DNA of 64,000 nucleotides from a bacterium (GCA_035527835.1 DATKZS010000196.1:1058-65057), one strand, 5' to 3'; counted from the first letter of the stretch, positions 8,247 to 26,334 are shown. Program-made: numbers and translations. The notes: generated by a model from the letters alone, not told the origin.

Positions 8247-8456
8247 TGCCCCAACACCCGCAGATGCGGCCCAGGGGCTGCGGGCGCCCTTGCAGGTCTT
8301 CACCCCTACCAATTATTGCATACGCGGATCAGGGGGAGCGGGTGCCCTCACCCGCGCTCACCCGCGTCTCAAAATTTTTATCTTGACCTGGAACCCAACC
8401 GCCACTCCGTTGTCTATTAACTATCCCCGAAAGGAAGCCAAACCCTTTCATCAGCA

Positions 8457-8497
8457 CAACCGCCCCGGGTAACCCGCCTGGGGCGGTTGTGTTTTTA
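8457..8497 (+). terminator. rho-independent terminator after the GT-C gene (first of two tandem similar modules)
   Basis: CAACCGCCCCGGG...CCTGGGGCGGTTG stem followed by TGTTTTT. A second near-copy at 8588-8625 lacks a clean T-run. Confidence 0.6.
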
Positions 8498-8675
8498 TGA
8501 ATCTCATGCATTTTTCTGAAACCTTTGTTCAGAAAATGAATCTAAATAAGTGAATCCCCGAAAAGAAGCCAAACCTTTTCATCATGCAACCGCCCCCGGG
8601 AAGTTCCCAGGGGCGGTTGCATTTATAAGCATTTCAATAAGTTATAGCGACGATGGACCATTCAAGCAACCAAGA

Positions 8676-8790
8676 GCTCGCACAGAGACACTGAGGCACA
8701 GAGATTTATGGGGTTTCAATAAGACTGTTCCGGTCTTTTCATCAAAAAAACCAATTAAAACCTCTGTGTTCTCTGTGCCTCTGTGCGAGA
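8676..8790. repeat. CACAGAGA hairpin, copy 1 (upstream of the groESL promoter)
   Basis: CTCGCACAGAGACACTGAGGCACAGAGA ... TCTGTGTTCTCTGTGCCTCTGTGCGAG. Confidence 0.7.
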
Positions 8791-8847
8791 TCCCCCTCTC
8801 CTGATTCCATTCCGGGCATTTTTTGTAAAAATTTCGTGCTTCCCCGC

Positions 8848-8875
8848 TTGCTTTTTCCGCGGGAATGACTATAAT
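8848..8875 (+). promoter_or_regulatory. sigma70-type promoter of groESL (TTGCTT-N16-TATAAT)
   Basis: -35 at 8848-8853, -10 TATAAT at 8870-8875, located 9 nt upstream of CIRCE. Confidence 0.7.
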
Positions 8876-8884
8876 GACCACAGA

Positions 8885-8912
8885 TTAGCACTCTACTAGG
8901 GGAGAGTGCTAA
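8885..8912 (+). promoter_or_regulatory. CIRCE operator (HrcA binding site)
   Basis: TTAGCACTCT-N8-AGAGTGCTAA perfect inverted repeat matching the CIRCE consensus TTAGCACTC-N9-GAGTGCTAA, 53 nt upstream of groES. Confidence 0.9.
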
Positions 8913-8964
8913 TCCGTTCTTAGGACTATCAAACCGGAAAAATACGGGAGAAAGGAGTAAAGCT

Positions 8965-9291
8965 ATGAAAATCAAGCCGTTACAAGACCGCGTACTGGTG
9001 ACCAGGATCGAGAAGGAGGAAAAGACGGCCGGAGGGATCATCATCCCGGACACGGCCAAGGAAAAGCCCGCGGAGGGCAAGATCGTGGCGGTGGGCCCGG
9101 GCAAGACCACTGACGAGGGCAAGGTGATCAAGTTGGACGTCAAGGTCGGCGACCACGTGCTGTTCGCTAAATACGGCGGGACCGAGGTCAAGGTTGACGG
9201 GGTCGAGTACCTCCTGATGCGGGAGGAAGAGATCCTGGGCGTGATCGAGGGATCGGGCTCCCATAAAGATTCCAAGAAGAAAAAGAAGTAA
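8965..9291 (+). CDS. groES: co-chaperonin GroES (with Lys-rich C-terminal tail)
   Basis: [12 protein letters not shown]...[13 protein letters not shown]...KYGGTEV; canonical Cpn10. Shine-Dalgarno GGAG 8 nt upstream. Confidence 0.97.
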
Positions 9292-9299
9292 TTAAATAA

Positions 9300-10979
<1,680 letters not shown>

Positions 10980-11006
10980 TTACATCCGCGAAACCTCGCC
11001 AACCAA

Positions 11007-11035
11007 GGCGGGCCCTCGGGCCCGCCTTTTTTTTG
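11007..11035 (+). terminator. rho-independent terminator of groEL
   Basis: GGCGGGCCC-TCG-GGGCCCGCC stem-loop followed by T8. Confidence 0.85.
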
Positions 11036-11527
11036 CGCCGTGTCCACTGCCGTCAAATCCAGGCCACGGAGCCCGTTTCCCCAAAAATTTTTACCCTGTT
11101 TCGTCACGGTGTCCAACAAAATCCGCGGCTTGCCCGCCAGGGCCCCATTTTCTGTGGCCCAAGGGCTGGGACGCGGAGGCACTTTCGCGGCCCAATTCCC
11201 AGGCCCCTGTGGCCTGCGGTCCGGGCCGCAAAAACGCCTCCGTGTCCTAACCATCAGGCCACCCGCGTCCTATAATCCAGGCCACGAAATGACGCACCGA
11301 AACCGGCCCTTAAATTTACTTTTTTGACCCAACCATTCATTTTTCGTAGAGCCATTCTCACCTCGGAAAAATAGTAGCAAGTAGCCAGTAGCCGGTAGCC
11401 AGGGCTCAAACCCCAAACCTCAAACCCCAAACCTCCCTCATGCCCCCCTACTATTCGCAAACTGGTCGCACCGAAAAGGAAAAAAAGTAATGGTCCAAGG
11501 AAAGGGAGTAGCCAGCAGCCAGGGAGA

Positions 11528-11625
11528 AGATAAAAAAGGCTTGAGGTTTGAGGTGTGAGGTTTGAGATTGGAGGCTTAAGATCGGGATGTTAACCACAAA
11601 CCCCAAACCCCAAACCTCAAACCTT
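11528..11625. repeat. octamer-repeat hairpin
   Basis: GGCTTGAGGTTTGAGGTGTGAGGTTTGAG ... AACCACAAACCCCAAACCCCAAACCTCAAACC. Confidence 0.7.
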
Positions 11626-11713
11626 TCTTCCCTCCTTCGTGCCCTTGGTGTCTTCGTGGTTCAATTCTCTTTCCTCAAACCTCAAACCCCAAACCTCAAA
11701 CCTCATTTTCCCC

Positions 11714-11741
11714 TTGACATCGAACCATGAAGGGATATACT
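11714..11741 (+). promoter_or_regulatory. promoter module copy P1 (TTGACA-N16-TATACT)
   Basis: Module CCCTTGACATCGAACCATGAAGGGATATACTGGACCGAGAATCGCGGGAAGG... No obvious downstream gene. Confidence 0.45.
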
Positions 11742-11934
11742 GGACCGAGAATCGCGGGAAGGAGAAGGAAAGGCCGGATGGTGAGCGGAAGAAAATATGA
11801 ACCACAAAGGCACAAAGAACACAAAGAAAAAAACATTCTTCCCCCTTCGTGCCCTTTGTGCCTTGGTGGTTAAATTCTTTCTCTTCCCTGGCTACCGGCT
11901 ACTTGCTACTGGCTACTTTTTCCCCACTTTTTGC

Positions 11935-11962
11935 TTGACATGGAAGCAGGAAGGGATATTCT
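11935..11962 (+). promoter_or_regulatory. promoter module copy P2 (TTGACA-N16-TATTCT)
   Basis: Long form of the module, extending to about 12090 with the conserved tail AATGTTAAATGTTAAGACCTGA. Confidence 0.4.
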
Positions 11963-12279
11963 GGCAGAGAGATTACGGGAGGGGATGGACAGGAAAGGCA
12001 GGATGGGGAATGGGACCGGAAAGCGGCGGGCGCGGGGAAGAATGATGAGGCTAATGTTAAATGTTAAGACCTGACCCCAATCACTTCGTGGTTCAATTCT
12101 CTTTCCTCAAACCTCAAACCTCAAACCTTTCTTCCCCCCTTCGTGCCCTTGGTGTCTTCGTGGTTCAATTCTCTTTCAACAAACCCCCAACCTTTCCTCC
12201 CGGGATATTGATGTCCCCGATCCCGTCCAACCCTTGATACCACAGGGTATCATGGTTGCGGATCATGGGACCATCGTCT

Positions 12280-12951
12280 TTATCCGCCCATGGCCTTGAC
12301 CGCTTCCACGGACCATTGCAGAGCGCCATCAAAGGCCTCGCGGGTCAGGTCCGCGCGCGAGAGGCTAAGGACCAGGGAATGGCTGGGAAGATAAAACATT
12401 ACGGAGATGATGGCCTTCGAGAGCAAGGGCAGGCCCTCACGCACCACCGGCAAGGACAAGCTTGAGTAGTCCTCTGAAACAGGATGGACCGCAAAGATAT
12501 AATTCCCAGCCAGCTCCGTACCGGCCAGTCCGGGAATCTGGGCCAGGTCCTCCTCCGGATCAATCTCATCGTCCTCCCGGCGCCGCTCCAGCTCGATGAT
12601 TTCTTCCCCGTCCGGGTCCTTCACCTCTCCCACGGTCAGATACCAACGCTTGGCCTTTTTGGGCAGGTATTCCAGGACGACCTTGCTCATCCCCGCGCGG
12701 CCTTCCATCCGCCTCTCCTGCGTCCCCTCCACCGGTTTTAAATCATACGCCGCCACGAGCTCGGCCCACAATGGATCGCCGCTGAACAGAACCTGAATCT
12801 TCTCCCGGATACCCATTTGGTTTCGGCCCTCCTTGATTTTTCCTCGCCAGGAATGCAACAACATCCCCTGACCAATGGCGCGGACAATCTTGTCCGCTGA
12901 CAACCTATTGTACATCGCGACCAAAATAACGCCGCCTCGGTGAAACCGCAA
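12280..12951 (-). CDS. hypothetical protein (acidic, no recognisable domain)
   Basis: 223-aa ORF, the only minus-strand ORF in the island. Start is uncertain; internal Met candidates exist. Confidence 0.4.
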   Translation of the reverse strand: MRFHRGGVILVAMYNRLSADKIVRAIGQGMLLHSWRGKIKEGRNQMGIREKIQVLFSGDPLWAELVAAYDLKPVEGTQERRMEGRAGMSKVVLEYLPKKAKRWYLTVGEVKDPDGEEIIELERRREDDEIDPEEDLAQIPGLAGTELAGNYIFAVHPVSEDYSSLSLPVVREGLPLLSKAIISVMFYLPSHSLVLSLSRADLTREAFDGALQWSVEAVKAMGG

Positions 12952-13015
12952 GCTGGAACGCAGTATCCAAACCTCCCCCTCCCCAAGCTGCCGGCTGCTT
13001 TTTTTCTTTTTCCGC

Positions 13016-13043
13016 TTGACATGGAATCAGGACGGGATAGACT
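13016..13043 (+). promoter_or_regulatory. promoter module copy P3 (TTGACA-N16-TAGACT) driving the DUF4258/YgiT pair
   Basis: Same module as at 11714, 11935, 13805 and 14047. 15 nt upstream of ATG 13058. Confidence 0.6.
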
Positions 13044-13057
13044 GGCAGGGGATTACG

Positions 13058-13360
13058 ATGACGATCAAGGAGATTCAAGATAAGATCAAGGCCGGCAGCC
13101 ACCGCTATTCGGACCATGCGGTGAAAAGAATGATTAAAAGGTCAATTGAGGACCATGAGGTTGAGCAGGCTGTTTTAACGGGAGAGATCATAGAAGAGTA
13201 CCCCCGCGATAAGTATTCTCCCAGCTGCCTGGTTTTCGGAACCACGGACAAGGGGAGGCCCTTGCACGTCCAGGTTTCATTTCCGCCCCAAGTTGTTATA
13301 ATAACCGTATATGAGCCGGATCAAGATGAATGGACGGATTATCGGGTCAGGAGGAGGTGA
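13058..13360 (+). CDS. DUF4258-family putative toxin
   Basis: Roughly 100-aa protein with a (S)DHAVKRM motif typical of DUF4258. ATG at 13058. The track start at 13016 is a TTG lying inside the promoter -35. Confidence 0.7.
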   Translation: MTIKEIQDKIKAGSHRYSDHAVKRMIKRSIEDHEVEQAVLTGEIIEEYPRDKYSPSCLVFGTTDKGRPLHVQVSFPPQVVIITVYEPDQDEWTDYRVRRR

Positions 13361-13366
13361 AGCAAC

Positions 13367-13609
13367 ATGAAATGCGTATTCTGCGGCGGCCAAACCAAAA
13401 GCCAAAAAGTGACCTTTGTTGATGACGAGCAAGGCAAATACCTGGCGGTCGAGAACGTACCCGCCCAGGTCTGCACCAGGTGCGGAGAAAAAACCTATGA
13501 CCCCGAAACCACCAGGCTCCTCCTCGACTACGCCCGCAACCGCCGCCACCCCGCCAAAACCTTTAACATGCCCGTCTTCGACTTCGAAAAACCCGGCGAC
13601 AGGCCATGA
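13367..13609 (+). CDS. YgiT-type zinc-finger (MqsA-like) putative antitoxin
   Basis: MKCVFCGG...CTRCGE zinc ribbon of the TIGR03831/YgiT type. Sits 6 nt downstream of the DUF4258 gene. Confidence 0.7.
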   Translation: MKCVFCGGQTKSQKVTFVDDEQGKYLAVENVPAQVCTRCGEKTYDPETTRLLLDYARNRRHPAKTFNMPVFDFEKPGDRP

Positions 13610-13635
13610 GCGGGCCTTAAGGAGTAGCCGGCAGC

Positions 13636-13800
13636 CAGTAGCCAGGGAAAAGCTTAAGACTTGAGGCTTGGGGCTTGAGGCTTGAACCACAAACCCCAAA
13701 CCTCAAACCACAGACCTTCCTTTCTTCCCTTCGTGCCTTCGTGGTTCAATTCCCCCTCTTCAACCACAAACCCCAAACCTCAAACCACAAACCTCATTTT
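13636..13800. repeat. octamer-repeat tracts (CTTGAGG/AAACCACAAACC) in the island
   Basis: Visible period-8 tandem arrays. Short ORFs in the track translate them as KPQTSNL-type peptides. Confidence 0.7.
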
Positions 13801-13804
13801 ATGC

Positions 13805-13832
13805 TTGACATCGAACCAGGAAGGGATATACT
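13805..13832 (+). promoter_or_regulatory. promoter module copy P4 (TTGACA-N16-TATACT)
   Basis: Short form of the module, nearly identical to P1 over about 100 nt. Confidence 0.45.
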
Positions 13833-14046
13833 GGACCGAGAATCGCGGGAAGGGATGGACGGGAAAGACGGGATGGGGAGCGGAAGAAAATATGAACCAC
13901 CATGCCACCAAGATCACGAAGAACAATAAATCATCCTTCTTCCCTTCGTTCCCTTGGACTTCGACGAGCTCAGTCGAGTCGTGCCTTCGTGGTTCAATTC
14001 TCTTTCTTCCAACCCCAAACCTCAAACCACAAACCTCATTTTTCCC

Positions 14047-14074
14047 TTGACATTGAACCCGGAAGGGATATACT
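14047..14074 (+). promoter_or_regulatory. promoter module copy P5 (TTGACA-N16-TATACT) upstream of the AT-rich orphan gene
   Basis: Near-consensus hexamers, followed by a purine-rich leader and then gene 14295. Confidence 0.55.
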
Positions 14075-14294
14075 GGCGGAGAAATTACGGGAGGGAATGG
14101 ACGGGAAAGGCGGGATGGGGAACGGGACCGGAAAGGGGAGCGCGGGGAGAAGAATGAGAAGGATAATGTTAAATGTTAAGACCTGATCCCAATCCCATGC
14201 CAATCCCCATGCCAATCCCCACCACCAATCCCCACCAACAGCCCCTTGAGACCAGAAGCCGCTTTTTCCAAATATAATTAGAGAGGGTAGGAAA

Positions 14295-15497
14295 ATGATG
14301 GCAAAGACTTACTCACCTACAGACATTTTTTTTGATCCATTAGTTGATAGAGATTATTATTACACCATCCTTCCTCTTCTTCCGTTACTATATGATCATA
14401 TTTATATTTATTATCCGAGTGACAATTGGGCCAAGGTTACAAATTACCTTTCTCCGACGACACGTATTAGCTACATTCAAAATCTGAGACATTGGATTAG
14501 CAAAGGAGTAATTATACCAGTCTTAAAAGGTGAATATCCATTGAAAGATGACATAAGAAAAAAGAGATCTGAAATGGATGGGCCTTCCGAAGAGTTTAAA
14601 AATGTTCTGAAAAAATATAGAAAGGACTATCAAGAATCTTTAATAACTCTTGATGTACAATCAACGCTAAGAGGGTATGATGAAGCTAGAAAACTAATTC
14701 AGGAAATTGGGAACGAAGAACAAATCATTAATATGATTAAGCTAGACCTTAATGAAGCTATTCCCGACCTTTTTTATTATTATGCCGGCGGACCAAGAGC
14801 AACCAGTTCTAAATTGCTCCTAGAGATAATCAGTGCATATAAAAATGACGATTGGATTAGAAAAGATAACGAGCTTGGAGAATATTTGCTTCCAAGCACT
14901 GCTGCATACCAATATCATGCCATTACAGATCTTGGTGAAAAAAAGAGAATAGAAGATATATATCATAATACTATTATTGTAAGAGCAGTTGATATTCTTG
15001 ATGAGAAACGACTCAGACGAGATATTTGTGAATGGCCTGAAAAAGATAATATTGAAACATGGCGTGAGTTGGGTCTTCACAGAATATTGAGAGTGTTCTT
15101 ACACTCACAGGCAATTTCAAATAATCCAGATGTACAAGCAAATGAACTAGAATACACAAGCATAGAGCTTGGCAATAGATTAACTAAACTTCGATCACAA
15201 CTTCCAGGTGAATTGGCATCTCTTTTAGTTGACAAAGGATTGTTATCGCAAATTATTATTTGCCTTACTGCGTCACTAGGCATTGTAATTGGTGATGCAA
15301 CATCAACAATTATTGGAGGCTTGGTAACTCTCTGTGTGGGCAATATAGGAAGCAAAGCTATTTTATTCAGCCTAAAGAGGATAAAATGGGATAAATTCAT
15401 TGATGCTATTGAAGATGTTTTAGGCTCCAAGTCAAATAGAACGTTGGAGAGCATTGCACTTGCCTTTGGAGATGTTATAGTCTTAGGAAGAGAGTAG
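14295..15497 (+). CDS. AT-rich orphan protein of unknown family; soluble 300-aa N-terminal region plus two C-terminal TM helices
   Basis: 400-aa uninterrupted ORF whose DNA is strikingly AT-rich relative to everything around it. Shine-Dalgarno GAGGG is 9 nt upstream. C-terminal hydrophobic segments LLSQIIICLTASLGIVIG and IIGGLVTLCVGNIG. Confidence 0.7.
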   Translation: MMAKTYSPTDIFFDPLVDRDYYYTILPLLPLLYDHIYIYYPSDNWAKVTNYLSPTTRISYIQNLRHWISKGVIIPVLKGEYPLKDDIRKKRSEMDGPSEEFKNVLKKYRKDYQESLITLDVQSTLRGYDEARKLIQEIGNEEQIINMIKLDLNEAIPDLFYYYAGGPRATSSKLLLEIISAYKNDDWIRKDNELGEYLLPSTAAYQYHAITDLGEKKRIEDIYHNTIIVRAVDILDEKRLRRDICEWPEKDNIETWRELGLHRILRVFLHSQAISNNPDVQANELEYTSIELGNRLTKLRSQLPGELASLLVDKGLLSQIIICLTASLGIVIGDATSTIIGGLVTLCVGNIGSKAILFSLKRIKWDKFIDAIEDVLGSKSNRTLESIALAFGDVIVLGRE

Positions 15498-15618
15498 AAA
15501 GAAATTATTTATGTTCATCCGGTTAAAGAGTACTTTTGCTGATGAAGATGAAGCAGTCTCATCTTAAAATATTCATTATCACGATATCCATAAGCCTGTC
15601 TTTTCAGTGGGGATTGGG

Positions 15619-15712
15619 GTCATCTATAAAAGTCCCAGTCAAGACAAATCTCTCTTTTCCTGAAGACAAATTTTCTTCATCTGGGAAGGGCTCCCCCCTC
15701 GCCATCGCCGCT
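15619..15712 (+). repeat. X module of the composite 3' block (copy 1)
   Basis: TCATCTATAAAAGTCCCAGTCAAGACAAATCT...CTGGGAAGGGCTCCCCCCTCGCCATCGCCGCTG. Second copy at 17991-18085. Confidence 0.75.
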
Positions 15713-15820
15713 GTGCGGGATCGGGATCGGGGGTCAGGTCTCGACATTAGACATTTGTTTACGTATTCAGGGTATGTTTAATCAACCCTTACCGGGTTGG
15801 GCGGTGGTGATGGGATTGTG

Positions 15821-15880
15821 TCCCAGGGTAGGCCGAAGACGGCCAACCCTGGGCTATTTTATGTTTGCCCTTTCAGGGAG
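15821..15880 (+). repeat. REP-like element, copy 1 (partial: central and right hairpins only)
   Basis: TCCCAGGGTAGGCCGAAGACGGCCAACCCTGGGCTATTTTATGTTTGCCCTTTCAGGG. Confidence 0.75.
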
Positions 15881-15980
15881 TAACAATAATGCCGCGGCCA
15901 GGGGATGCGAATTGTGTGGGTGGGGGTCAGACCCTTGTTTGACTGTTTAACGGGGCGGAATTTTTCAGCCGTCTTTATCT

Positions 15981-16080
15981 CGCCCTTTCAGGGCTGAAAA
16001 GGATATTTGGGGCGGCGATATCCCAGGGTAGGCCGGGGACGGCCAACCCTGGGCTATTTTATGTTTGCCCTTTAAGGGCG
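15981..16080 (+). repeat. REP-like triple-hairpin element, copy 2 (full)
   Basis: CGCCCTTTCAGGGC ... CCCAGGGTAGGCC-loop-GGCCAACCCTGGG ... GCCCTTTMAGGGCG. Lies 3' of gene 14295-15497. Confidence 0.8.
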
Positions 16081-16139
16081 TAACAATAATGCCGCGGCCA
16101 GGGGATGCGAATCGGGAGAGGTTGTGGCGGGCATCAAAG

Positions 16140-16345
16140 AAAGGTTTGTGGTTTGAGGTTTGTGGTTTGTGGTTGAAGAAAGGAGATTGAACCACGAAGG
16201 CACGAAGGTAGGAAAAGAGGTTTGTGGTTTGAGGTTTGTGGTTTGTGGTTTAATAGCCAAACCTCAGACCTCAGACCTCAAGCCTCACACCTCAAACCTC
16301 AATCCTCGCGCCCGGACCTCAAACCCCAAACCTCACACCTCAAAC
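16140..16345. repeat. octamer-repeat tract pair (GGTTTGWGG arms then CCTCAAACC arms)
   Basis: Tandem 8-mers on one strand followed by their complement. Part of composite block I. Confidence 0.75.
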
Positions 16346-16440
16346 CTCATCTCCCTTGATTCATGATGCTTGATCGGGCATAGTTGGGCCATGTGGAGAA
16401 CAGGTTTGTGGTTTGGGGTTTGCGGTTTGTGGTTGAATAA

Positions 16441-17970
16441 ATGAAGATTCGGGATCAGGGCCGGGAATTGGAACGACAAACCACAAACGACAAACTTCGC
16501 GTTGGCCGGGGAGGTGCGGGGATGAAGGAACGGAGATTATGCGTTTTCATCAGCGGCGTGATTGTGGGAGCGGCTTTAGGCGTTGGGCTGGGGTGTCTTC
16601 GTCTGAAGAGCGTGGAGGCGGTGGTTCGGGAGCCGGAGGTCCCCGGGGAGTCACGGCTTGCCTATACCCCGCCTCCGGAGCCGAAGTTTTCCGCGGAGTT
16701 TGCGGCCAAGTACATGCCGGTGCTGCTGAGCATGATACAGCCTCAAATCGAAAAGGTGACGGATGATATTTACGTTGCCATGGGATACGCCATGGGCAAC
16801 GTGACCATGGTGATCACTGACGAGGGCCTGGTGATCATTGACACGACGGAGAGCGAGGACTCGGCGCGGAGGATCATGGCGGACTTCCGCAAGATCACGG
16901 AGAAGCCGGTGCGCTATATCATCTACACCCATTTTCATCCGGACCATAACCAGGGGACCCGGGCTTTTTATTCGGAGGGGGTCGAGATTATCGCGACCAG
17001 GGAATTTTTGAACTGGATCCACGGCGCCAATCCCGGACTGGGCGACCAACATTTTCGGCGCGTTCTGGACATACTGGGAGGGGCCGCGGAGCCGGAGTAT
17101 GCCTTCTCCATGCCTTTTTCCAGCCCCTACCTGAGCGCGGGAAAGGCGCCCGAGGCCATGATGCCGACCATTACCTTTGACGAGCAGTATTCTTTCAGCC
17201 TGGGCGGCAAGCGGTTCGATCTTTTCCACACGCGGGGGGAGACCGAAGACCATTTGGCGGTCTGGATGCCCGAGGAGCGGGCCTTGCACGTCGGAGACCT
17301 TTATTATCATTCCTTCCCCAACCTGGCGGGCATCATGCTGGAGGCCCGGCCGGTCCGCGGCTGGATGGCGTCGCTGTCGCGCTTCATCGCGCTTGGGCCG
17401 GAGTACCTCATCCTCGGCCACACCAAACCTCTTAAAGGCCAAAGCCATATCCAGGAGCACCTGGAGAACTATCTGGCCGCCATCCAGTACGTGCACGATG
17501 AGACTCTCCGATACATCAACAACGGCAAAAGCGTCGAAGAGGCGGTGGCCGGGATCAATCTTCCCGACAGCCTTGCCCGGCTGCCGTATCTGCAGGGGCT
17601 TTACGGCAGGGTGGACTGGTCGGTCCGGGACATCTACCACGCTTATGCCGGGTGGTACGACGGCTGGGGCGCCGGGCTCAATCCCCTGCCCGGGAAGTTC
17701 CGGGCCCGGGAGATCGTCGCGCTGGCCGGAGGAGCCGATAAAATCCTTTCCCGCGCCATCGCGCTCCAAAAGAACGGTGAATATCAGCTCTCCGCGGAAC
17801 TGTGCGACGTCGTCATCGCGGCCAACCCCCAAGACAAGCTGGCCCACACCGTCATGGCCTACGACATGCAATACCTCGCCTTCAGCTCCGACAACCTGCT
17901 CTGCATCGGCGCCTATCTGTCGGCGTACTCCATGCACATGAAGGCCGCAAAAACGGGCGCGGGAACGTGA
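16441..17970 (+). CDS. MBL-fold metallo-hydrolase, alkyl/aryl-sulfatase (SdsA1/BDS1)-like, N-terminal membrane anchor
   Basis: THFHPDH zinc motif, IIDT, and a downstream dimerisation-like region. The start may be the internal MKERRLCVF at 16522. Confidence 0.75.
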   Translation: MKIRDQGRELERQTTNDKLRVGRGGAGMKERRLCVFISGVIVGAALGVGLGCLRLKSVEAVVREPEVPGESRLAYTPPPEPKFSAEFAAKYMPVLLSMIQPQIEKVTDDIYVAMGYAMGNVTMVITDEGLVIIDTTESEDSARRIMADFRKITEKPVRYIIYTHFHPDHNQGTRAFYSEGVEIIATREFLNWIHGANPGLGDQHFRRVLDILGGAAEPEYAFSMPFSSPYLSAGKAPEAMMPTITFDEQYSFSLGGKRFDLFHTRGETEDHLAVWMPEERALHVGDLYYHSFPNLAGIMLEARPVRGWMASLSRFIALGPEYLILGHTKPLKGQSHIQEHLENYLAAIQYVHDETLRYINNGKSVEEAVAGINLPDSLARLPYLQGLYGRVDWSVRDIYHAYAGWYDGWGAGLNPLPGKFRAREIVALAGGADKILSRAIALQKNGEYQLSAELCDVVIAANPQDKLAHTVMAYDMQYLAFSSDNLLCIGAYLSAYSMHMKAAKTGAGT

Positions 17971-17990
17971 ATCAGGGATCGGGAATCGGG

Positions 17991-18085
17991 ATCATCTATA
18001 AAAGTCCCAGTCAAGACAAATCTTTCTTTTCCTGAAGACAAATTTTCTTCGTCTGGGAAGGGCTCCCCCCTCGCCATCGCCGCTG
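17991..18085 (+). repeat. X module of the composite 3' block (copy 2)
   Basis: About 95% identical to 15619-15712. Confidence 0.75.
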
Positions 18086-18230
18086 AAGCTTGGCGGCCCC
18101 GAGATTTCTTGCCTCGGCCGGTTCGCGCCGGGGATGGGGGATGGGGGTCAGACCCTTGTTTGACGGGGGATGGGGGTCAGACCCTTGTTTGACTGTTTAA
18201 CGGGGCGGAATTTTTCAGCCGTCTTTGTTT

Positions 18231-18330
18231 CGCCCTTTCAGGGCTGAAAAGGATATTGGGGGCGGCGATATCCCAGGGTAGGCCGCAGACGTCCAACCCT
18301 GGGCTATCTTATTTTTGCCCTTTCAGGGCG
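18231..18330 (+). repeat. REP-like triple-hairpin element, copy 3
   Basis: Near-identical to 15981-16080. Lies 3' of gene 16441-17970. Confidence 0.8.
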
Positions 18331-18546
18331 GAAGCAGGATAGCCCGCATAGCTTGCTATGGGGGTGGCCGGGGCCACGGGATGCGATTGCGGAGTCATTA
18401 TGGCGGGCATCAAAGAAAGGTTTGTGGTTTGAGGTTTGTGGTTTGTGGTTAAATACTCAAACTTCAGAGTGGGACAGCCCACATAGCGAGCTATGTGGGG
18501 TATCCGGTGGAGGGAATTTTTTTCGATGATGCGGCGGCGGTTCGGC

Positions 18547-18629
18547 CGTCCCGCCGGGACTTGATGGTTTTTTTCCGCCTGGTCCCCAGGAAAGAATTCC
18601 TGGGCTAATTTCAAGCCGTCCCGCCGGGA
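18547..18629. repeat. GTCCC-CGGGAC palindromic element, copy 1
   Basis: GTCCCGCCGGGAC ... CCCAGGAAAGAATTCCTGGG ... GTCCCGCCGGGAC. Confidence 0.7.
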
Positions 18630-18738
18630 CTAAAGGCCTCAAGACGGAAGGAGTAGCGGGTAGCGCGCAGCCAGGGAATACGAAGCTCCAAACCACAAAC
18701 CTCAAACCCCAAACCTCAAACCTCAACGCCTGCTGGTC

Positions 18739-18766
18739 TTGACAATGGAATTGATGCATCTATAAT
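18739..18766 (+). promoter_or_regulatory. consensus sigma70 promoter of the antitoxin-RelE operon (TTGACA-N16-TATAAT)
   Basis: Perfect -35 and -10 hexamers, 55 nt upstream of ATG 18821. Confidence 0.75.
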
Positions 18767-18820
18767 CGAATCAGGAGTGCGCTGGAAGGGCGCATCAAAT
18801 TCCGGAGGCGAGGAGATCAT

Positions 18821-19024
18821 ATGACCAATAGCGATGCCACGGCCGAGGTTTTTATCACGGCGCTGAAAGCCTTGCCCAAGACCGAGCGCGACGCGGTCCT
18901 GGTGCGCATCGCCCGGGACAAGGAATTCGCCCGCGACCTCCTCGACCTCGCCGTCATCTCCTCCCGCGGCCACGAACCCTCCCGTCCCTTCCGCGAATAC
19001 CTGGCGGCCAAAAGAAAAAAATGA
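18821..19024 (+). CDS. putative type II antitoxin (partner of RelE/ParE)
   Basis: 67 aa. Overlaps the downstream toxin by 4 nt (ATGA). Preceded by a consensus promoter and a GGAGG Shine-Dalgarno. Confidence 0.55.
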   Translation: MTNSDATAEVFITALKALPKTERDAVLVRIARDKEFARDLLDLAVISSRGHEPSRPFREYLAAKRKK

Positions 19025-19275
19025 ACGCCAAGCGCGCCTACGCCGTCAGCATCAAGCGCTCGGCGGAAAAGGAAATGGACCGCCTGCCCGCGGACATCTT
19101 CGACCGCATCGCCTCCGCAATCCTTGACCTCGAAACCAATCCCCGCCCTCCCGGATGTAAAAAGCTCCGGGGCATCGAAGAATACCGCCTCCGGGTCGGG
19201 CCGTATCGAGTCCTCTATACCATTGACGATCCCGGGAAAAAGGTATTCATCATATCGGTGGGCCATCGCCGGTAA
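19021..19275 (+). CDS. RelE/ParE-family toxin
   Basis: 84 aa. YRVLYTID...KVFIISVGHRR C-terminus characteristic of RelE/ParE. Confidence 0.8.
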   Translation: MNAKRAYAVSIKRSAEKEMDRLPADIFDRIASAILDLETNPRPPGCKKLRGIEEYRLRVGPYRVLYTIDDPGKKVFIISVGHRR

Positions 19276-19356
19276 GTTTACCGCGGCATTTGATGCGCGC
19301 TTTGTGGTTATGGGACCGGCTCCGGTAAAGTCGCTCCCTCAGGCTGGAGACGGGTC

Positions 19357-20817
19357 TTACTCGATGCTTGCGGCCATGACTCGATAGACGAGCGCGATGC
19401 GTCCGTCGCGGTTGAAGGCTCGGAGGAAGAGGTAGGTTAGCCTGAATTTGCCTTGTGGGGTCGTGACCACGGTGTCGCGGTTTTTTGCTGACTTCAGGAA
19501 TCCGAAGCGCTGCCAGTCCACCTGCGAGATGTTGAGCCACACGATCAAGCCCACGTCATGCGTGAGCACCTGCTCCAACACAAAACGGTCCGGGTCATCG
19601 CCTGGCTTGATTTCTCCCCAAGTGTAGGCCTCCCGGCCGGTGGTGTACTTGAAGATCAGCGGGTTCTGCCCCAGCACCGCTTCTTCGCCGGGAACTTGGC
19701 GCAGCGACTTCGCGGCCTCCAGGATCGGGTCCCCCGGCAGCGCGGCCAGTCCGTAAAGATAAAGGCCGCTGACCGCCAGCAGCGGGACCAGCACGCCCGC
19801 CGCCGCGGCCGTCTTCATCCGCGGCTCCCGCTCCGGCCGGCGCGACGCGTCCCATTTCACGAAGCGGTCCAGGCCCAGCGCCGCCGGCGCGAGCACCGCC
19901 GGCATCAGCGCCAGCAGGAACCGGTCCTGGTACCACCACCAGATGACGTGCAGGCCCGTGTAGAGCGCGGCGAACCCGGCGAGGTAAATGAGCCACTTAC
20001 GTTGGAGCCGGGCCAGGCCCAGGGCCGCGGCGGCCAGGGCCACCGGCCCGAAGTCCTTGACCAGGCCCAGGCCGATCTCGGCCAGGTGGAGATGTAACAC
20101 CACCAACTCCAGCCAATAGGAGGTCCTGCTCAGCGTTCCGTAGGTCAAAAGGTTCCGGATCAGCCACGGCGACGCCGCCAGCGCCGTTCCCGCGAGCCCC
20201 TTGATCACGGCGCGTCCGCTGCCGAGGTTGGCGATCACGAACACCAGGACCAGCAGGTAACCCTCGTACCTGGTGATCATGGCAAGCCCCAGCATGAGCC
20301 CCGCCGTAAAAAAGCGCTCCGTGCTCAGCAGCCAGTAAGACAGCAACAGCAGCAGCGTGAAGATGGGCATCACGTTCACGTCCCGGTACTGGTCCCAGCC
20401 CACCGCCATCAGCGCCAGCGCCGCCGCCGCCGTCAGCGCCGCCCAGCGCGAGGCCTGGAGGCGCCGCGCCAGCAGGAACAGGAGCGGAGGCAACATGGCC
20501 CCGCAGCCGACGCTGACCGCCTGCCCCCATTTCTCCACCCCGATCGCGCCGCCCGCCGCCAGGTTGAATAACGCCATCAGGAACGGATAAAACGGCAGGA
20601 ACTTGGCGTACGGCTCTCCCATAACCACGTACCCGCCGCGAAACAGGTTCTCGGCAAGCTCGATGTAAGTAAAACCGTCCGGCGTGACCACGCGGAAAAA
20701 CCAGGCGAGCGCGCCATAGCCCAGCAACCCCGCGCCCAGCAGGATCATCGCGATGCCGCGGTCAGAAGCGGCGTCCCGGCTGTCCGTGCAAATGTTCAGC
20801 AGCTCGTTCCCCCTCAA
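19357..20817 (-). CDS. GT39/GT83-like (PMT/ArnT family) membrane glycosyltransferase
   Basis: DGFTYIELAENL DE-motif in the first periplasmic loop. At least 10 TM helices. The start may be the internal MILLGAGLL. Confidence 0.7.
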   Translation of the reverse strand: MRGNELLNICTDSRDAASDRGIAMILLGAGLLGYGALAWFFRVVTPDGFTYIELAENLFRGGYVVMGEPYAKFLPFYPFLMALFNLAAGGAIGVEKWGQAVSVGCGAMLPPLLFLLARRLQASRWAALTAAAALALMAVGWDQYRDVNVMPIFTLLLLLSYWLLSTERFFTAGLMLGLAMITRYEGYLLVLVFVIANLGSGRAVIKGLAGTALAASPWLIRNLLTYGTLSRTSYWLELVVLHLHLAEIGLGLVKDFGPVALAAAALGLARLQRKWLIYLAGFAALYTGLHVIWWWYQDRFLLALMPAVLAPAALGLDRFVKWDASRRPEREPRMKTAAAAGVLVPLLAVSGLYLYGLAALPGDPILEAAKSLRQVPGEEAVLGQNPLIFKYTTGREAYTWGEIKPGDDPDRFVLEQVLTHDVGLIVWLNISQVDWQRFGFLKSAKNRDTVVTTPQGKFRLTYLFLRAFNRDGRIALVYRVMAASIE

Positions 20818-21467
20818 CTTTTCTGGAGTCCGGCGAGGTCCTTGTTGGCGCCGAGGATGACGAGGAGGTGGGAGGCCTTGATGCGGGTGTCGGGCTCGGG
20901 GATGAAGGTGATTTCCTCGGGGACCTTGTCGCGGATGGCGAGGATCTGGCAGTGGTAGCGCTTTCTGAATTCGAGTTCGAGCAGGGTCTTGCCGACCATT
21001 TCCTTGATGGGTATCATCTCGATGATTGAGAGGTCTGGTCCGAGGGGCAGGTAGTCGGCGATGTTGGCGCCGTGGAGGCTGGAGGCGATGCGGATGCCCA
21101 TGTCGCGCTCGGGGAAGACGATGCGCTGGACGCCGATGAGCTCGAGGATTTTGGCGTGGTCTTCGGAGAGGGCCTTGGCCACGATTTTCTTGACTCCGAG
21201 CTCGCGGAGGTGCATGGCGGCGAGGATGGATGATTCGAGCTTGTCGCCGAGCGACAGGACGACGGCGTCCATGCCGGTTAGGCCGAGCTGTTGGATGGCG
21301 CGGCGGTCGGTGGCGTCGGCGACCACGGCCTTGCTCACGTAGGCCTTGATCTTGTCCACCATGGTCTCGTCGTAATCAATGGCCAGGACGTCGCTTCCCA
21401 GCTCGGCGAGCTTGCGGGCCATGTAATAGCCGAAGCTGCTCATCCCGATTACCGCGATCTGCGCCAT
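20814..21467 (-). CDS. trkA: Trk/Ktr potassium-uptake NAD-binding subunit
   Basis: Rossmann motif IAVIGMSSFG, plus RCK_N and RCK_C domains. 217 aa. Confidence 0.9.
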   Translation of the reverse strand: MAQIAVIGMSSFGYYMARKLAELGSDVLAIDYDETMVDKIKAYVSKAVVADATDRRAIQQLGLTGMDAVVLSLGDKLESSILAAMHLRELGVKKIVAKALSEDHAKILELIGVQRIVFPERDMGIRIASSLHGANIADYLPLGPDLSIIEMIPIKEMVGKTLLELEFRKRYHCQILAIRDKVPEEITFIPEPDTRIKASHLLVILGANKDLAGLQKS

Positions 21468-21493
21468 TCTTCACCTCTCTATTAAAAGATTTT

Positions 21494-21580
21494 CAGACAG
21501 GATGAACAGGATCAACAGGATATTGGGAAGAGGCCATTTGCTTTTTTTCTCATCATCCTGTTAATCCTGTTAATCCTGTC
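21494..21580. repeat. AGGAT-nonamer palindrome, copy 2 (between trkH and trkA, upstream of the trkA start)
   Basis: GACAGGATGAACAGGATCAACAGGAT ... ATCCTGTTAATCCTGTTAATCCTGTC. Confidence 0.75.
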
Positions 21581-21617
21581 TAAAAAATTCTTCATGACTT
21601 CGGTCCGCCGCCCCACC

Positions 21618-23027
21618 CTACCCTATCATGATTTTCTCTTCCGGGAACTTGTAGGCCCGGCCGGCGCGGCGGCGCTCGAGCGCGAACACCAGGGTCAGGG
21701 GTCCGAGCCTGCCGATGAACATGAGGAGCGTGATGAGCAGGCGCCCGCCGTCGCTCAGGTCCGGCGTGATTCCGGTGGACAGGCCGACCGTGCCGAACGC
21801 CGAGACGCTCTCGAACAACAGCTCCATGAACAGGCGGCGGTCAAGGCCCAGCGCCGGGACCTCCACCTCCGCGATCAACAGGACCAGCACGATCAGCCCG
21901 ATCAGGAACAGGGACAGCAGCACCAGCGACAGCGAGTGATCAACGTCGCCGCGGCTCACCGACCGCCCGAACGCCGACGGCGCCGAGAAATTGCGCAGCC
22001 GCGACAGGACCACGATCAGGATCACGCCCGCGGTCGTGACCTTGACGCCGCCGGCCATGGAGCCCGGCGCCGCGCCGATGAACATGAGCACGATCAGCGC
22101 GAACAGCGAGGCGTCCGAGAGCTTCCCGATGTCAACGGTGTTGAACCCGGCGGTGCGGGCCGTGACCGACTGGAACAGGGAGCGGAGCGCGGCCTGGCCC
22201 CAGGGCATGCGCGCGAGCAGGTGGGGCCGCTCCAACCCGTAAAGCAACACCGCGCCGCCCACGATCAAGAGGAGCGTCATCGCCACCACGATCTTGGTAT
22301 GGAAGCTGATGCGGCGCTTGGCCGGGTCCGGGTCGCGCTTCAAGGTGTCCCACAAATCAACCAGCACGAAGAAGCCGATCCCGCCGAGCACGATCAGCGC
22401 CATGACCGTGAAGTTCACCGTCCCGTCGCCCGCGTACTTCATCAGGCTGTCCGCAAACGGCGAGAACCCGGCGTTGCAGAACGCCGACACCGAATGGAAC
22501 AAAGAGAGCCATAGCGCCCGCCCCCACGGATAGTCCCGCACCCACCGCGAAAACAACAGCACCAACCCCGCCCCCTCCGCGCAGAGCGTGAAGATCAGTG
22601 CCCGCGACAGCATCTCGGAGAGGCTGTAGCGCCGGAGCTTCAGAAACGACCCGCTGGCCGCGTCGCTCATCGAAAGCGGCGCCTTGCCCCGCATCATGAA
22701 CAGGATGAAGGTCCCGAACGTCATGATCCCGAACCCGCCGAACTGGATCATGCCAAGGATCGCGGCCTGGCCGAAGTCCGTGAACGCCGTGCCCGTGTCC
22801 ACCACCGTAAGCCCGGTCACGCACACCGCCGAAGTCGCCGTGAACAGAGCGTCAACAAAGCTCAAGGACTTGACGTGCGAGATCGGGAGCATCAGGACAA
22901 GGGCCCCAACCAGGATCACCGAGCCGAAGCTCAAGATGGCGAGCTGGCCCGCGTTCATCCGGCGCCAGACCTGGCTGAAAAATCGCCGCATGCAGGCAAT
23001 TGTAATGAGAGCGGGGAGGAGAGTCAA
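21618..23027 (-). CDS. trkH: Trk/Ktr potassium-uptake membrane subunit
   Basis: 469-aa polytopic protein with repeated pore-loop GxG segments typical of TrkH/KtrB. Start is uncertain because the 5' end abuts a GC-rich octamer repeat tract. Confidence 0.88.
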   Translation of the reverse strand: MTLLPALITIACMRRFFSQVWRRMNAGQLAILSFGSVILVGALVLMLPISHVKSLSFVDALFTATSAVCVTGLTVVDTGTAFTDFGQAAILGMIQFGGFGIMTFGTFILFMMRGKAPLSMSDAASGSFLKLRRYSLSEMLSRALIFTLCAEGAGLVLLFSRWVRDYPWGRALWLSLFHSVSAFCNAGFSPFADSLMKYAGDGTVNFTVMALIVLGGIGFFVLVDLWDTLKRDPDPAKRRISFHTKIVVAMTLLLIVGGAVLLYGLERPHLLARMPWGQAALRSLFQSVTARTAGFNTVDIGKLSDASLFALIVLMFIGAAPGSMAGGVKVTTAGVILIVVLSRLRNFSAPSAFGRSVSRGDVDHSLSLVLLSLFLIGLIVLVLLIAEVEVPALGLDRRLFMELLFESVSAFGTVGLSTGITPDLSDGGRLLITLLMFIGRLGPLTLVFALERRRAGRAYKFPEEKIMIG

Positions 23028-23029
23028 AA

Positions 23030-23160
23030 GGGGAGTGGGGCTTGAGGCCTGGGGCTTGGGGCTTGGGGCGTGAGGCCTGGGGCTTGGGGCGTGGGGCCTG
23101 GGGCTTGGGGCGTGAGGCCTGGGGCCTGGGGCTTGGGGCGTGAGGCGTGAGGCAAGAGCG
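23030..23160. repeat. GC-rich variant octamer tandem repeat (GGGGCKTG/AGGCCTGG)n, about 16 units
   Basis: Direct tandem array immediately upstream of the trkH 5' end. Confidence 0.8.
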
Positions 23161-23202
23161 CTTCATAGTTTACTGTTTCAATCTGATTGGCTCTTTTTCT
23201 AC

Positions 23203-23302
23203 AGCCCTGAAAGGGCAATAATAAGATAGCCCAGGGTTGGCCGTCCTCGGCCTACCCTGGGATATCGGCGTCCATAATATCCTTTTCAGCCCTGAAGGGG
23301 CG
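23203..23302 (-). repeat. REP-like triple-hairpin element, copy 4 (reverse orientation, 3' of the FmdE gene)
   Basis: Reverse complement matches the 15981-16080 copy over about 100 nt. Confidence 0.8.
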
Positions 23303-23431
23303 TAATAAAAACGGGCAATGGCATCTGAGATCAAACAAGGGAAGGCTTATTAATTCCGAAAAACTATAATGTTGCAGGCACGCGGCCCAGGTTTTCAACC
23401 TGTGCCCTCCCCAAACCTCAAACCCCAAACC

Positions 23432-24022
23432 TCAAACCTTTTCCGCGCACGGAATGCAGAGCACCTTGCCTTTCACTTTCCTCGTCCGCGTGTCCATCAC
23501 CGGCTCGCCGCAGGAGGCGCAGATCAGGCTCTGGTGGATCTCGGCCTCGGCGGGGAGCGTGATCCTCACGTTCTTGATGTTGAAGAGGTCATCGTCCTTG
23601 GCGGTGAGGAGCATTTTCACGCGGTCCTCGCGGCTGGGCGCGGGCCTGGCGAACACGTCCGGCCGGAGCGCCACCCGCACCGCTTTTCCGCCGGGCCTTT
23701 TCGCGAACGTGAACACCTGCTTGCCGTAGTCGCGGAAAAACAGGTTGCCCTTGCCGAAGGTCGCGCCCGTCAAGAACTGCACCGCGTCCACGGCACAGGA
23801 GTTGTTCTCCACGATGGCAATCAGCTCCTCGTCGCCCGACCGCCTCCCCCGGAGCCTCTTCATCCCCGCCTTCGCCGCCCGATAGCCGATCAGGAGCCCG
23901 GGGCAGAGGTGGCCGTGGAAGGAAACAACACCACTCAACTCTCTATTTAATTTCAACTCCTTTTTGCGGCTGTTTCTTGTCGTCATTAGGATCATACCTC
24001 CATTCTGCATGCTGGATTCCAC
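23432..24022 (-). CDS. FmdE/FwdE-family protein with C-terminal zinc ribbon
   Basis: FHGHLCPGLLIGYRA motif of PF02663. C-terminal CxxC...CxxC. Confidence 0.75.
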   Translation of the reverse strand: MESSMQNGGMILMTTRNSRKKELKLNRELSGVVSFHGHLCPGLLIGYRAAKAGMKRLRGRRSGDEELIAIVENNSCAVDAVQFLTGATFGKGNLFFRDYGKQVFTFAKRPGGKAVRVALRPDVFARPAPSREDRVKMLLTAKDDDLFNIKNVRITLPAEAEIHQSLICASCGEPVMDTRTRKVKGKVLCIPCAEKV

Positions 24023-24116
24023 CCTTCTGAACCTATGGCCAGCTATTATTCAGCCGACCCCTGGTGGTAATCTCTTTTAATGATGACGAATCCAGCATTA
24101 TGTTTCATTGGCGGAC

Positions 24117-25865: not shown

Positions 25866-25959
25866 GGTTAATCAGCCTTTCATGGCGCCTTCAGCGCTCA
25901 AAGAGCCGAGTGGAACCGCGTTCTTATCCAGCACGGGTCGCGCGGCGGAGCGGAATGGG

Positions 25960-26328: not shown

Positions 26329-26334
26329 CCGTCC

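Follow-up and report, generated by a model that had tools for sequence, protein, structure and literature searches.

What kind of DNA follows groEL in the genome of a barely studied bacterium, and how might it have come together? In a 64,000-nt stretch of bacterial DNA (GCA_035527835.1, DATKZS010000196.1:1058-65057; hereafter the window), an initial annotation had singled out positions 11036-19356, between groEL and a presumed glycosyltransferase gene, as an accessory island with two toxin-antitoxin (TA) pairs and the look of a hot spot for acquired DNA. This segment, which we also call the island, has a mixed gene content of atypical composition, is rich in repeats, occupies a locus that is not conserved among relatives, and contains a promoter module that is also found in front of other low-GC genes. 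In our view the segment probably consists of accessory DNA filling an integrase-free hot spot whose beginning is the groEL terminator. Small independent units, comprising a gene of a rare family (u178), a first TA pair (TA pair 1), an AT-rich orphan gene, a truncated alkylsulfatase-like gene and a second TA pair (TA pair 2), would have accumulated there piecemeal, most likely arriving by recombination and not through a dedicated integrase. The TA modules, whose activity is predicted from their sequences, probably stabilise the segment.

Composition and variability of the groEL 3' flank

On its left the segment is bounded by a conserved anchor made up of groES (8965-9291) and groEL (9318-10979), both on the plus strand and annotated as Cpn10 and Cpn60 in an identical contig. 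An intrinsic terminator follows groEL on the same strand (11005-11035), with a 10-bp stem containing 8 GC pairs and then a T-run. Relatives and homologues were found through protein-cluster look-ups in protein sets of up to 5.8 billion sequences. The best GroEL match among GTDB representatives was only 75% identical, and therefore uninformative for synteny; the search of 5.8 billion proteins recovered GroEL relatives at 95, 87, 84, 84 and 80% identity, the last being 'Deltaproteobacteria bacterium RBG_13_61_14'. The host appears to belong to an uncultivated, poorly sampled lineage related to RBG_13_61_14, with a GC content of ~62%.

Seven genes were recognised in the segment. The only one on the minus strand is u178 (12280-12816; 178 aa), with a GC content at third codon positions (GC3) of 0.74; the initial annotation was right to place a single minus-strand open reading frame (ORF) here, although the gene is shorter than the 12280-12951 first proposed. 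The plus-strand genes encode a DUF4258 protein (13058-13360; GC3 0.59) and a YgiT-type zinc-finger protein (13367-13609; GC3 0.72), which form TA pair 1, the orphan (14295-15497; 400 aa; GC3 0.26), a metallo-beta-lactamase (MBL) alkyl/aryl-sulfatase-like protein (16522-17970; 482 aa; GC3 0.78), and the putative antitoxin (18821-19024; 67 aa) and RelE/ParE toxin (19021-19275) of TA pair 2. Coding density is 50% in the segment, compared with at least 86% outside it. The GC3 of the seven genes ranges from 0.26 to 0.79, against 0.80-0.95 for nearly all of the ~25 scored backbone genes; the backbone exceptions are g44536 (0.75), a WD40 gene at 24117-25865 (0.56) and an ORF at 23369-23950 (0.58). 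The departure is strongest in the orphan, at 35% GC in a window of 62% GC, and this is the kind of atypical composition by which genomic islands are recognised. Like accessory genes elsewhere, those of the segment are patchily distributed and occur in other contexts: homologues of the orphan lie on three unrelated contigs, and a copy of u178, 88% identical in nucleotides to 12276-12915 and forming a 640-nt unit with sharp borders, lies in an unrelated context on contigs L098 and L099.

Conservation of this gene order in all relatives had been named at the outset as the observation that would speak against an island. Among the contigs compared for synteny (L089-L093, L100 and L101), none of the seven island genes was found, and none of the six relatives shares the gene order. 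The relative at 87% GroEL identity (L089) has groESL, four unrelated genes and then FmdE, acyl-CoA dehydrogenase (77% identical) and aminotransferase IV (76%), a block that matches window positions 23.4-29.8 kb; since the block is shared and the filling differs, groESL and this block appear to be old neighbours. In a relative at 84% GroEL identity (L090), a DUF4258 and DUF2283 pair (11688-12279) stands directly after the groEL terminator. Its DUF4258 protein has no BLASTP similarity to that of the window, which suggests that this kind of module reached the site on separate occasions, and L091 carries yet other genes after groEL. The clearest case is a pair of strains from the RBG_13_61_14 lineage, L092 and L093, which encode the same GroEL protein and are 98% identical in nucleotides. 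Their homology breaks 42 nt past the groEL stop codon, inside the terminator hairpin, and resumes at the next conserved gene; between these points L092 has 399 bp (11686-12086) with a 105-aa ORF, and L093 has 2550 bp (11686-14237) with a 234-aa ORF and an Eco57I-like N6-methyltransferase. Immediately past the groEL terminator, three lineages hold TA or restriction cassettes that differ from one another. The groESL 3' flank would then be a recurrent site of insertion or replacement in a barely studied lineage near RBG_13_61_14, paralleling the staphylococcal groEL attB site but without an integrase.

The right border is less firm. Contig L100, the closest relative here at ~85% nucleotide identity and with a TrkA at least 90% identical, is collinear with window positions 34718-20807, and homology ends exactly at the TrkA stop codon (20807). 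The membrane-protein gene at 19357-20817, which borders the segment, consequently lies in divergent territory and is a weak anchor. Its companion contig L101 shares this collinearity before diverging; L101 and L087 contain two glycosyltransferase-like paralogues with unrelated convergent genes, and neither groEL nor any island gene; groEL next to the glycosyltransferase-like gene, an arrangement that the initial annotation suggested looking for elsewhere, was seen in no relative.

A second variable spot was observed at window positions 23951-26664, where a WD40/PD40 beta-propeller gene (24117-25865, minus strand, the low-GC3 exception given above) lies between FmdE and acyl-CoA dehydrogenase. 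At the corresponding place L100 has a HicAB-type pair (7080-7960), at whose side 118 nt of the 3' end of the dehydrogenase gene are duplicated with 95% identity (L100 7701-7818, equal to window 26782-26665). The plus-strand ORF at 23369-23950 was considered as FmdE and rejected as lying on the wrong strand, the real gene being at 23432-24022 on the minus strand. This antisense ORF is a conserved high-GC shadow with a misleading tblastn match and a low GC3.

Repeat mosaics and the promoter module

The non-coding half of the segment is made of repeats. As first noted, the 1.2 kb after the groEL terminator hold many repeats and no credible ORF: no ORF in 11036-12279 matches a family, the ORFs listed there pass through repeat units, and 72% of this interval recurs elsewhere. 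Of the island's 4.2 kb of non-coding DNA, 69% has a match at another place, be it within the island, in the remainder of the window or in one of a handful of compared contigs, which belong to relatives or to the same metagenomes; the island's coding sequences, u178 excepted, do not recur. The vocabulary is small and comprises the heptamers CAAACCY/GGTTTGR and AGTAGCC, 9-mer arrays, a pyrimidine-rich unit ('CTTCGTGCC...GGTTCAATTCTCTTTC'), double hairpins and a promoter module. Inverted heptamer arrays fold into long hairpins (z -2.6 to -5.6), as do arms of 9-mer arrays (NNCACAAAG; z -6.4).

These units are combined into four mosaics. Mosaic Y1 (11036-12279) contains (AGTAGCC)n at 11373-11402 with an inverted copy at 11888-11917, a hairpin of (CAAACCY)n/(GGTTTGR)n heptamer arrays at 11520-11641, a 'CTTCGTGCC...GTGGTTCAATTCTCTTTC' module at 11631-11676, 12063-12108 and 12135-12180, and a 9-mer-array hairpin at 11797-11880; a 36-nt inverted pair (11369-11404/11886-11921, 92% complementary) brackets 550 nt of it. 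Mosaic Y2 (13610-14294) has heptamer arrays, a 9-mer hairpin and a (CCAATCCCCATG)n array at 14189-14237. Mosaic X1 (15498-16521) includes a 105-nt unit at 15609-15713, heptamer-array hairpins at 16143-16349, among them (CAAACCT)13, and a heptamer array at 16403-16434. Mosaic X2 (17971-18735) includes the 105-nt unit again (17981-18085), a 29-nt tandem repeat at 18136-18193, (GGTTTGT)n at 18419-18450, an AGTAGC-type array at 18648-18678 and (CAAACCT)n at 18689-18726. The mosaics are duplicates in direct orientation. Y1 and Y2, which flank u178 and TA pair 1, are 75% identical over 529 nt (11592-12082 and 13685-14194); X1 and X2, which flank the MBL gene, match at 95% between 15609-15713 and 17981-18085 and at 84% between 15918-16177 and 18168-18453. 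Such direct repeats may have served as substrates for cassette duplication or deletion by recombination.

The initial description of an island saturated with repeats stands in so far as the repeats exceed chance (five matches to the promoter pattern with 0.00 expected; hairpin z-scores from -2.6 to -6.4), but they extend far beyond the island. The same heptamers occur in the relatives L090 and L100, and repeat copies are present in the rest of the window and in L094-L097; the repeats are intergenic modules spread over the genome and the lineage and are not peculiar to the island. Their density does differ, with 18 heptamer arrays in the island and 12 in the window's other intergenic spacers (~4.3 versus ~1.6 per non-coding kb), a ~2.8-fold enrichment per non-coding kb. 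The locus in this way exposes a rich intergenic repeat vocabulary common to the lineage. Dispersed copies (window, L094-L097, L090) and insertion polymorphism relative to L100, described below for two sites, mark them as mosaic repeats, and the genome's own non-autonomous repeats probably colonised and partly duplicated the interval after its genes had arrived.

Several other interpretations of the repeats were discarded. Small ORFs within them (MNHKGTK..., MDxKGxMGNGTGK...) were rejected as coding because frames and lengths differ between copies; the hairpin arrays were rejected as terminators because terminator-like sites are not enriched; and Rfam matches to plant and animal miRNA families fell far under their thresholds and merely reflect hairpins. 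The (CAAACCT)13 array (16258-16349) provides the island's only plasmid similarity, to E. coli plasmids of ~95 kb at 82% identity, which is almost certainly a low-complexity coincidence. A heptamer family distinct from those of the island, (TGGGGCY), forms an array of ~17 units at 23030-23153 between TrkH and FmdE.

Some of the double hairpins resemble the Acido-Lenti-1 RNA motif (RF01687; Weinberg et al., 2010, PMC2864571), in which two hairpins are joined by GCUAnnUUnnn. Two window copies exceed the gathering score of 37, at 45480-45525 on the plus strand (41.5 bits) and 27980-28026 on the minus strand (41.3 bits), and a near-threshold match lies in X2 (18585-18631, plus strand; 35.5 bits). 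A long-stem variant of the double hairpin is found on the plus strand in the island (15821-15912, 15969-16112 and 18219-18362) and on the minus strand outside it (23204-23314 and 32378-32486). The island copies of this variant depart from Acido-Lenti-1 in their long stems, in forming the core of a 111-190-nt interspersed repeat and in scoring 19-27 bits (26.8 and 19.3 bits); the host, moreover, is neither an acidobacterium nor a lentisphaera, its GroEL being near that of RBG_13_61_14. The collinear L100 lacks the copies at 23.2 kb and 32.4 kb, its spacers there measuring 85 nt as against 400 and 272 nt in the window, which indicates that such modules are gained and lost over the time in which species diverge. 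The two polymorphic insertions show no consistent ends or target-site duplications between the window and L100. An Acido-Lenti-1-like element acting as an insertion-polymorphic repeat bears on the nature of that orphan small RNA (sRNA) motif.

Known intergenic repeats offer partial parallels. The island's repeats share with repetitive extragenic palindromic (REP) sequences, bacterial interspersed mosaic elements (BIMEs) and promoter-carrying miniature inverted-repeat transposable elements (MITEs) such as the Correia elements of Neisseria an organisation into extragenic mosaics of short palindromic or tandem units of variable order and orientation, insertion polymorphism between relatives and, in one module, an outward-facing promoter. 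They differ in that their units are unrelated in sequence, consist largely of tandem heptamers and 9-mers in inverted arrays, and lack definable terminal inverted repeats or target-site duplications. We know of no REP-associated tyrosine transposase (RAYT) or other transposase for these repeat types. Intergenic heptamer direct repeats are on record as the short tandemly repeated repetitive (STRR) sequences of cyanobacteria and the TAACTGA repeats of Beggiatoaceae (PMC4679880). The heptamers here likewise form short arrays (2-13 copies), confined to intergenic DNA, often just 5' of genes and common to related genomes, but they differ in sequence (CAAACCY/GGTTTGR, AGTAGCC and TGGGGCY) and are commonly in inverted pairs that form long hairpins (z down to -6.4).

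The more unusual element of the locus is the recurrent promoter-bearing part of the mosaic in front of foreign genes. A 31-nt pattern, CTTGACATNGAANCNNGANGGGATANNCTGG, occurs five times in the window, always on the plus strand and within the island, and promoter-like sites number 15 where 5.8 +/- 2.9 are expected. Each copy consists of TTGACA, a 16-nt spacer and TATACT, TATTCT or TAGACT. Two copies are in Y1 (11713-11743 and 11934-11964), neither of them ahead of a gene, one (13015-13045; TTGACA-16-TAGACT) lies 13 nt 5' of the DUF4258 start codon, and two are in Y2 (13804-13834 and 14046-14076), the second 220 nt 5' of the orphan; two copies precede only a 9-mer hairpin. The organism uses sigma-70-type promoters, as the TATAAT box and following CIRCE operator of groESL indicate, and the modules directly 5' of TA pair 1 and the orphan probably supply the transcription of these genes.

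One JGI metagenome scan yielded four more copies, three of them in contigs of the window's sampling series (Ga03073xx). All nine known copies have the same upstream grammar of heptamer arrays, an AGTAGC-type array and a T-run, and the JGI copies further have in common the initial 30-110 nt of a leader rich in purines. Three of the JGI copies are followed by a gene, namely a 27%-GC gene (GC3 0.17), an FRG-domain gene (0.49) and a native-looking zinc alcohol dehydrogenase gene (0.89), and the fourth by the contig end. With TA pair 1 and the orphan, the genes 3' of the five gene-proximal copies have GC3 values of 0.59, 0.26, 0.17, 0.49 and 0.89, so that four of the five are compositionally foreign (0.17-0.59). 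Three AT-rich genes at three loci, moreover, have modules of the same families on their upstream and downstream sides. Two of these are in L094 (6331-9520) and L097 (11600-13430), from the same community, where very AT-rich genes for a 27%-GC, 286-aa membrane protein and an FRG-domain protein are enclosed by the island's upstream and downstream repeat families; in L094 a PD-(D/E)XK 'GxxExxY' gene lies just 5' of the AT-rich gene.

It is conceivable, if rather unlikely, that the T-run, promoter and leader, with the preceding arrays, form a mobile 'expression adaptor' that either accompanies foreign, AT-rich genes lacking promoters or is recruited ahead of such genes. If so, it would represent a cassette system that works without an integrase and enables a 62-65%-GC genome to express xenogenes; a functional module would at any rate offer acquired genes a simple route to expression. 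A structured RNA in the leader was rejected because RNAalifold gave three invariant pairs and no covariation, and small ORFs in it are not conserved in frame. The leader (11965-12085 and 14077-14197, with equivalents in L094, L095 and L097) is an unstructured purine tract without an Rfam match, with ~9 GGA triplets per 100 nt; this raw density, not corrected for composition, is presumably within the range of CsrA/RsmA-binding sRNAs.

Mobility genes and competing explanations

The island proteins were searched against Pfam, NCBIfam, PADLOC and PHROGs. No site-specific recombinase domain was found in the island ORFs (Pfam, NCBIfam, PHROGs), nor an integrase or transposase domain among the annotated neighbours within ~10 kb on either side; the 64 kb contain no tRNA or tmRNA gene. 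PHROGs returned no phage-type genes beyond RelE-like and function-unknown matches, and nucleotide comparisons gave no phage match and no meaningful plasmid match. Defence-island prediction, another check suggested at the outset, drew a blank: none of the seven proteins matched PADLOC-DB at E<0.01, leaving TA modules as the only such content. The segment is not a classical island, integron, prophage or defence island.

It comes closest to the integrase-free hot spots that recombination in the flanking core genes maintains (Oliveira et al., 2017, PMC5635113), in being an interval apparently bounded by conserved genes and filled differently from genome to genome, with no mobile-element genes and an atypical composition. 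Turnover by recombination is plausible in this lineage, as the HicAB cassette of L100 with its 118-nt duplicate of a neighbouring core-gene 3' end illustrates. The published definition, however, needs a one-species pangenome, whereas our comparisons are between lineages plus one strain pair in a sister lineage; nor does it include repeat DNA, which makes up half of the interval here. As an accessory segment with TA modules, the locus is routine, and its genes had already been named by NCBI's pipeline.

The initial suggestion of a hot spot for acquired DNA is thus favoured by low GC3, an unshared gene order, a variable groEL 3' site and the u178 unit found elsewhere, but an empty site or presence/absence between strains was not seen. 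Several observations weigh against it. Among the genomes and contigs recovered, none has an empty or differently filled site between both window anchors, and the contig of the relative at 95% GroEL identity stops with the groEL stop codon. In relatives at 80-87% GroEL identity, gene order is rearranged 5' of groESL as well, and part of the apparent variability is general loss of synteny. The MBL gene, u178 and TA pair 2, with GC3 values of 0.74-0.79, deviate only mildly and could have resided here for a long time. As for the promoter module, its firing is putative, judged from its near-consensus sequence; two copies have no downstream gene, and one is directed into the 3' end of u178; and the association with low-GC genes comprises five cases, two of them in this island. 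Terminator-like sites, finally, are not enriched (9 found, 12.4 expected).

The segment could alternatively be read as a native, long-resident zone of low constraint that gathered selfish repeats and resident TA genes without ongoing gene flux. The genome-wide spread of the repeats and the near-native composition of the MBL gene, TA pair 2 and u178 fit such a zone, as does the 100% identity of the locus in several assemblies of the same series, among which no variant was detected. Yet the orphan (GC3 0.26) and the DUF4258 gene (0.59) cannot be native, u178 occurs as a self-contained unit in another place, none of the seven genes stands at this position in any relative, and the homologous site varies between near-identical strains of the sister lineage (L092 and L093). 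We therefore regard a purely native zone as unlikely.

Descent from a decayed integrative element (a phage satellite, a phage-inducible chromosomal island (PICI) or a genomic island) that had the groEL 3' end as its attB site and lost its integrase seems to us quite unlikely. TA pairs are common cargo of integrative elements, and the u178 homologue beside a tRNA-3'-half-like fragment in L098 suggests past travel on one. Staphylococcal PICIs integrate at the 3' end of groEL (PMC8125051), and the segment resembles them in its position directly after groEL and in cargo inserted without disrupting that gene. PICIs, however, have an integrase, modules for regulation, replication and packaging, and att repeats that overlap the final 18 bp of groEL (PMC8125051), whereas the island has no integrase, excisionase, or regulatory, replication or packaging genes. 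Nor does any repeat of at least 12 nt of the groEL 3' end and terminator (10900-11060) occur in 11061-23500, phage and plasmid similarity are lacking, and the cargo consists of several unrelated units of differing composition.

An integron-like array, that is, a cluster of attC sites lacking an integron integrase (CALIN) with the integrase located elsewhere, is very improbable. TA cassettes and orphans are typical of chromosomal integrons, and co-oriented, single-gene or TA-sized cassettes, including TA pairs and orphans, with structured repeat blocks between them, do recall such arrays. But no IntI or other tyrosine recombinase is present in the annotated 35 kb around the locus, and a crude pattern-and-pairing scan for attC-like sites (R''-L''...L'-R', 57-141 nt) returned none, with no R''/R' pairs. 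The heptamers GGTTTGR are unlike GTTRRRY, the cassettes here have promoters of their own where those of integrons usually have none, and between them stand mosaics of 240-1300 nt in place of attC sites of 60-140 nt.

A chimeric metagenomic join across shared repeats seems extremely improbable: although repeats of up to 166 nt at 93% identity fill the segment and other contigs break at 12993, 12996 and 12696 or, in the 95%-GroEL relative, at the groEL stop codon, the independent ENA assembly ERZ27256828 (24 kb) spans the island and both flanks with 100% identity and no mismatch over 20,979 nt, contigs of 80,418 and 82,010 nt encode the same proteins, and the repeat copies are diverged (75-95%) and resolvable by k=141 assemblers. 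The assembly is reproducible; shorter ENA and JGI contigs also contain the locus, and its proteins are deposited at NCBI as HUT55481-HUT55489 ('MAG TPA ... [bacterium]'). The contigs ending at 12993 and 12996 (L002 and L003, from two other assemblies) stop a short way ahead of TA pair 1's T-run and promoter, whereas the one ending at 12696 stops within u178; at 12993/12996 either repeats break the assembly or the graph branches. An accessory filling of a hot spot without an integrase remains the reading that we prefer.

Gene products and neighbouring features

The gene families first proposed for the segment's plus-strand genes held up throughout. In TA pair 1, the DUF4258 protein matches Pfam at 9.3e-25 and its partner the zinc-finger model TIGR03831 at 9.4e-13 (48 bits). 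Against the full-length MqsA model TIGR03830 the partner reaches 21 bits, for a cut-off of 61.8, and it aligns with positions 1-57 of the 131 of Pfam MqsA_antitoxin, under the cut-off; it thus appears to be the N-terminal zinc finger of MqsA without the helix-turn-helix (HTH) domain, and falls short of an MqsA proper. TA pair 2 is preceded by the predicted consensus promoter (18739-18766, plus strand; TTGACA-16-TATAAT, 12/12 consensus matches), with a palindrome, GATGCATC, in its spacer. The 67-aa putative antitoxin belongs to no known family and overlaps the toxin gene by 4 nt (ATGA); the toxin matches Pfam ParE_toxin (8.8e-12; 45.9 bits for a 23-bit cut-off), a RelE-like PHROG (1.7e-17) and RelE structures in PDB (6e-5). 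A RelE/ParE toxin, a coupled small upstream partner and a promoter of its own fit the type II architecture. In both pairs, as in type II TA modules (RelBE/ParDE, MqsRA-type), two small genes of the same orientation adjoin or overlap, one product has the domain of a toxin family (DUF4258; RelE/ParE), and the pair has its own promoter; TA pair 2 also has the palindrome inside the promoter. TA pair 1 differs from MqsRA-type modules in its partner, the zinc-finger half of MqsA without the HTH, with the toxin-like gene first; TA pair 2 differs from RelBE/ParDE in that its antitoxin matches no known family.

The protein u178 belongs to a rare family, with nine homologues in 1.8 billion representatives, all of which begin at M46. 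Its AF2 model (pLDDT 86.6) suggests a fold like that of type III secretion chaperones, YbjN and TtfA. A C-terminal Gly-Gly was considered as a ubiquitin-like signature and rejected, since distant homologues do not conserve it and the fold is chaperone/YbjN-like. The u178 copy elsewhere (L098 1-1110, also L099) adjoins a tRNA-3'-half-like sequence with T-arm, acceptor and CCA, judged by eye; ARAGORN called no tRNA beside the copy in L098. A ~22-nt motif, GAGAGATGGGGCAATGTCTGC, stands on both sides of the copy in L098.

The orphan, described at first as AT-rich, matches nothing in Pfam, NCBIfam, PADLOC or PHROGs. It has a hydrophobic C-terminal region and only three homologues among 5.8 billion proteins, at 38-45% identity and in unrelated contexts; its AF2 model, built from a 4-sequence alignment, was unusable (pLDDT 43). 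The 48-aa 'members' of its protein cluster were rejected as an unrelated clustering artefact. The alkylsulfatase-like protein has MBL and Alkyl_sulf_dimr domains (Pfam) and an N-terminal hydrophobic anchor; its ORF opens at 16441, with 16522 as the likely start. Against PDB entries 4pdx and 2cfu it aligns with chain residues ~90-514 of 640-658 and ends at ~494-514, and accordingly the catalytic and dimerisation domains are predicted to be present and the C-terminal SCP2-like domain of SdsA1/YjcS missing.

To the right of the segment, the minus-strand gene at 19357-20817 encodes a multi-pass membrane protein of 486 aa with native composition (GC3 0.87) and poor conservation, its only two homologues being 66% and 54% identical. 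The GT39 label it had been given finds no backing: there is no PMT/PMT_2 match, no Pfam match at E<0.01 (the best being GT87, E=0.22), no NCBIfam match and no PDB sequence match. Another membrane protein, at 5964-8246, matches PMT_2 at 20 bits, under the 26.1-bit cut-off.

Upstream of groES, the spacer at 8247-8964 is unusually long (718 nt). Its CIRCE operator (8886-8913) has a spacer of 10 nt instead of 9 nt, a 9-mer-array hairpin lies in the same interval at 8671-8795, and a hairpin repeat of ~65 nt occurs there twice, at 8425-8492 and 8557-8621.

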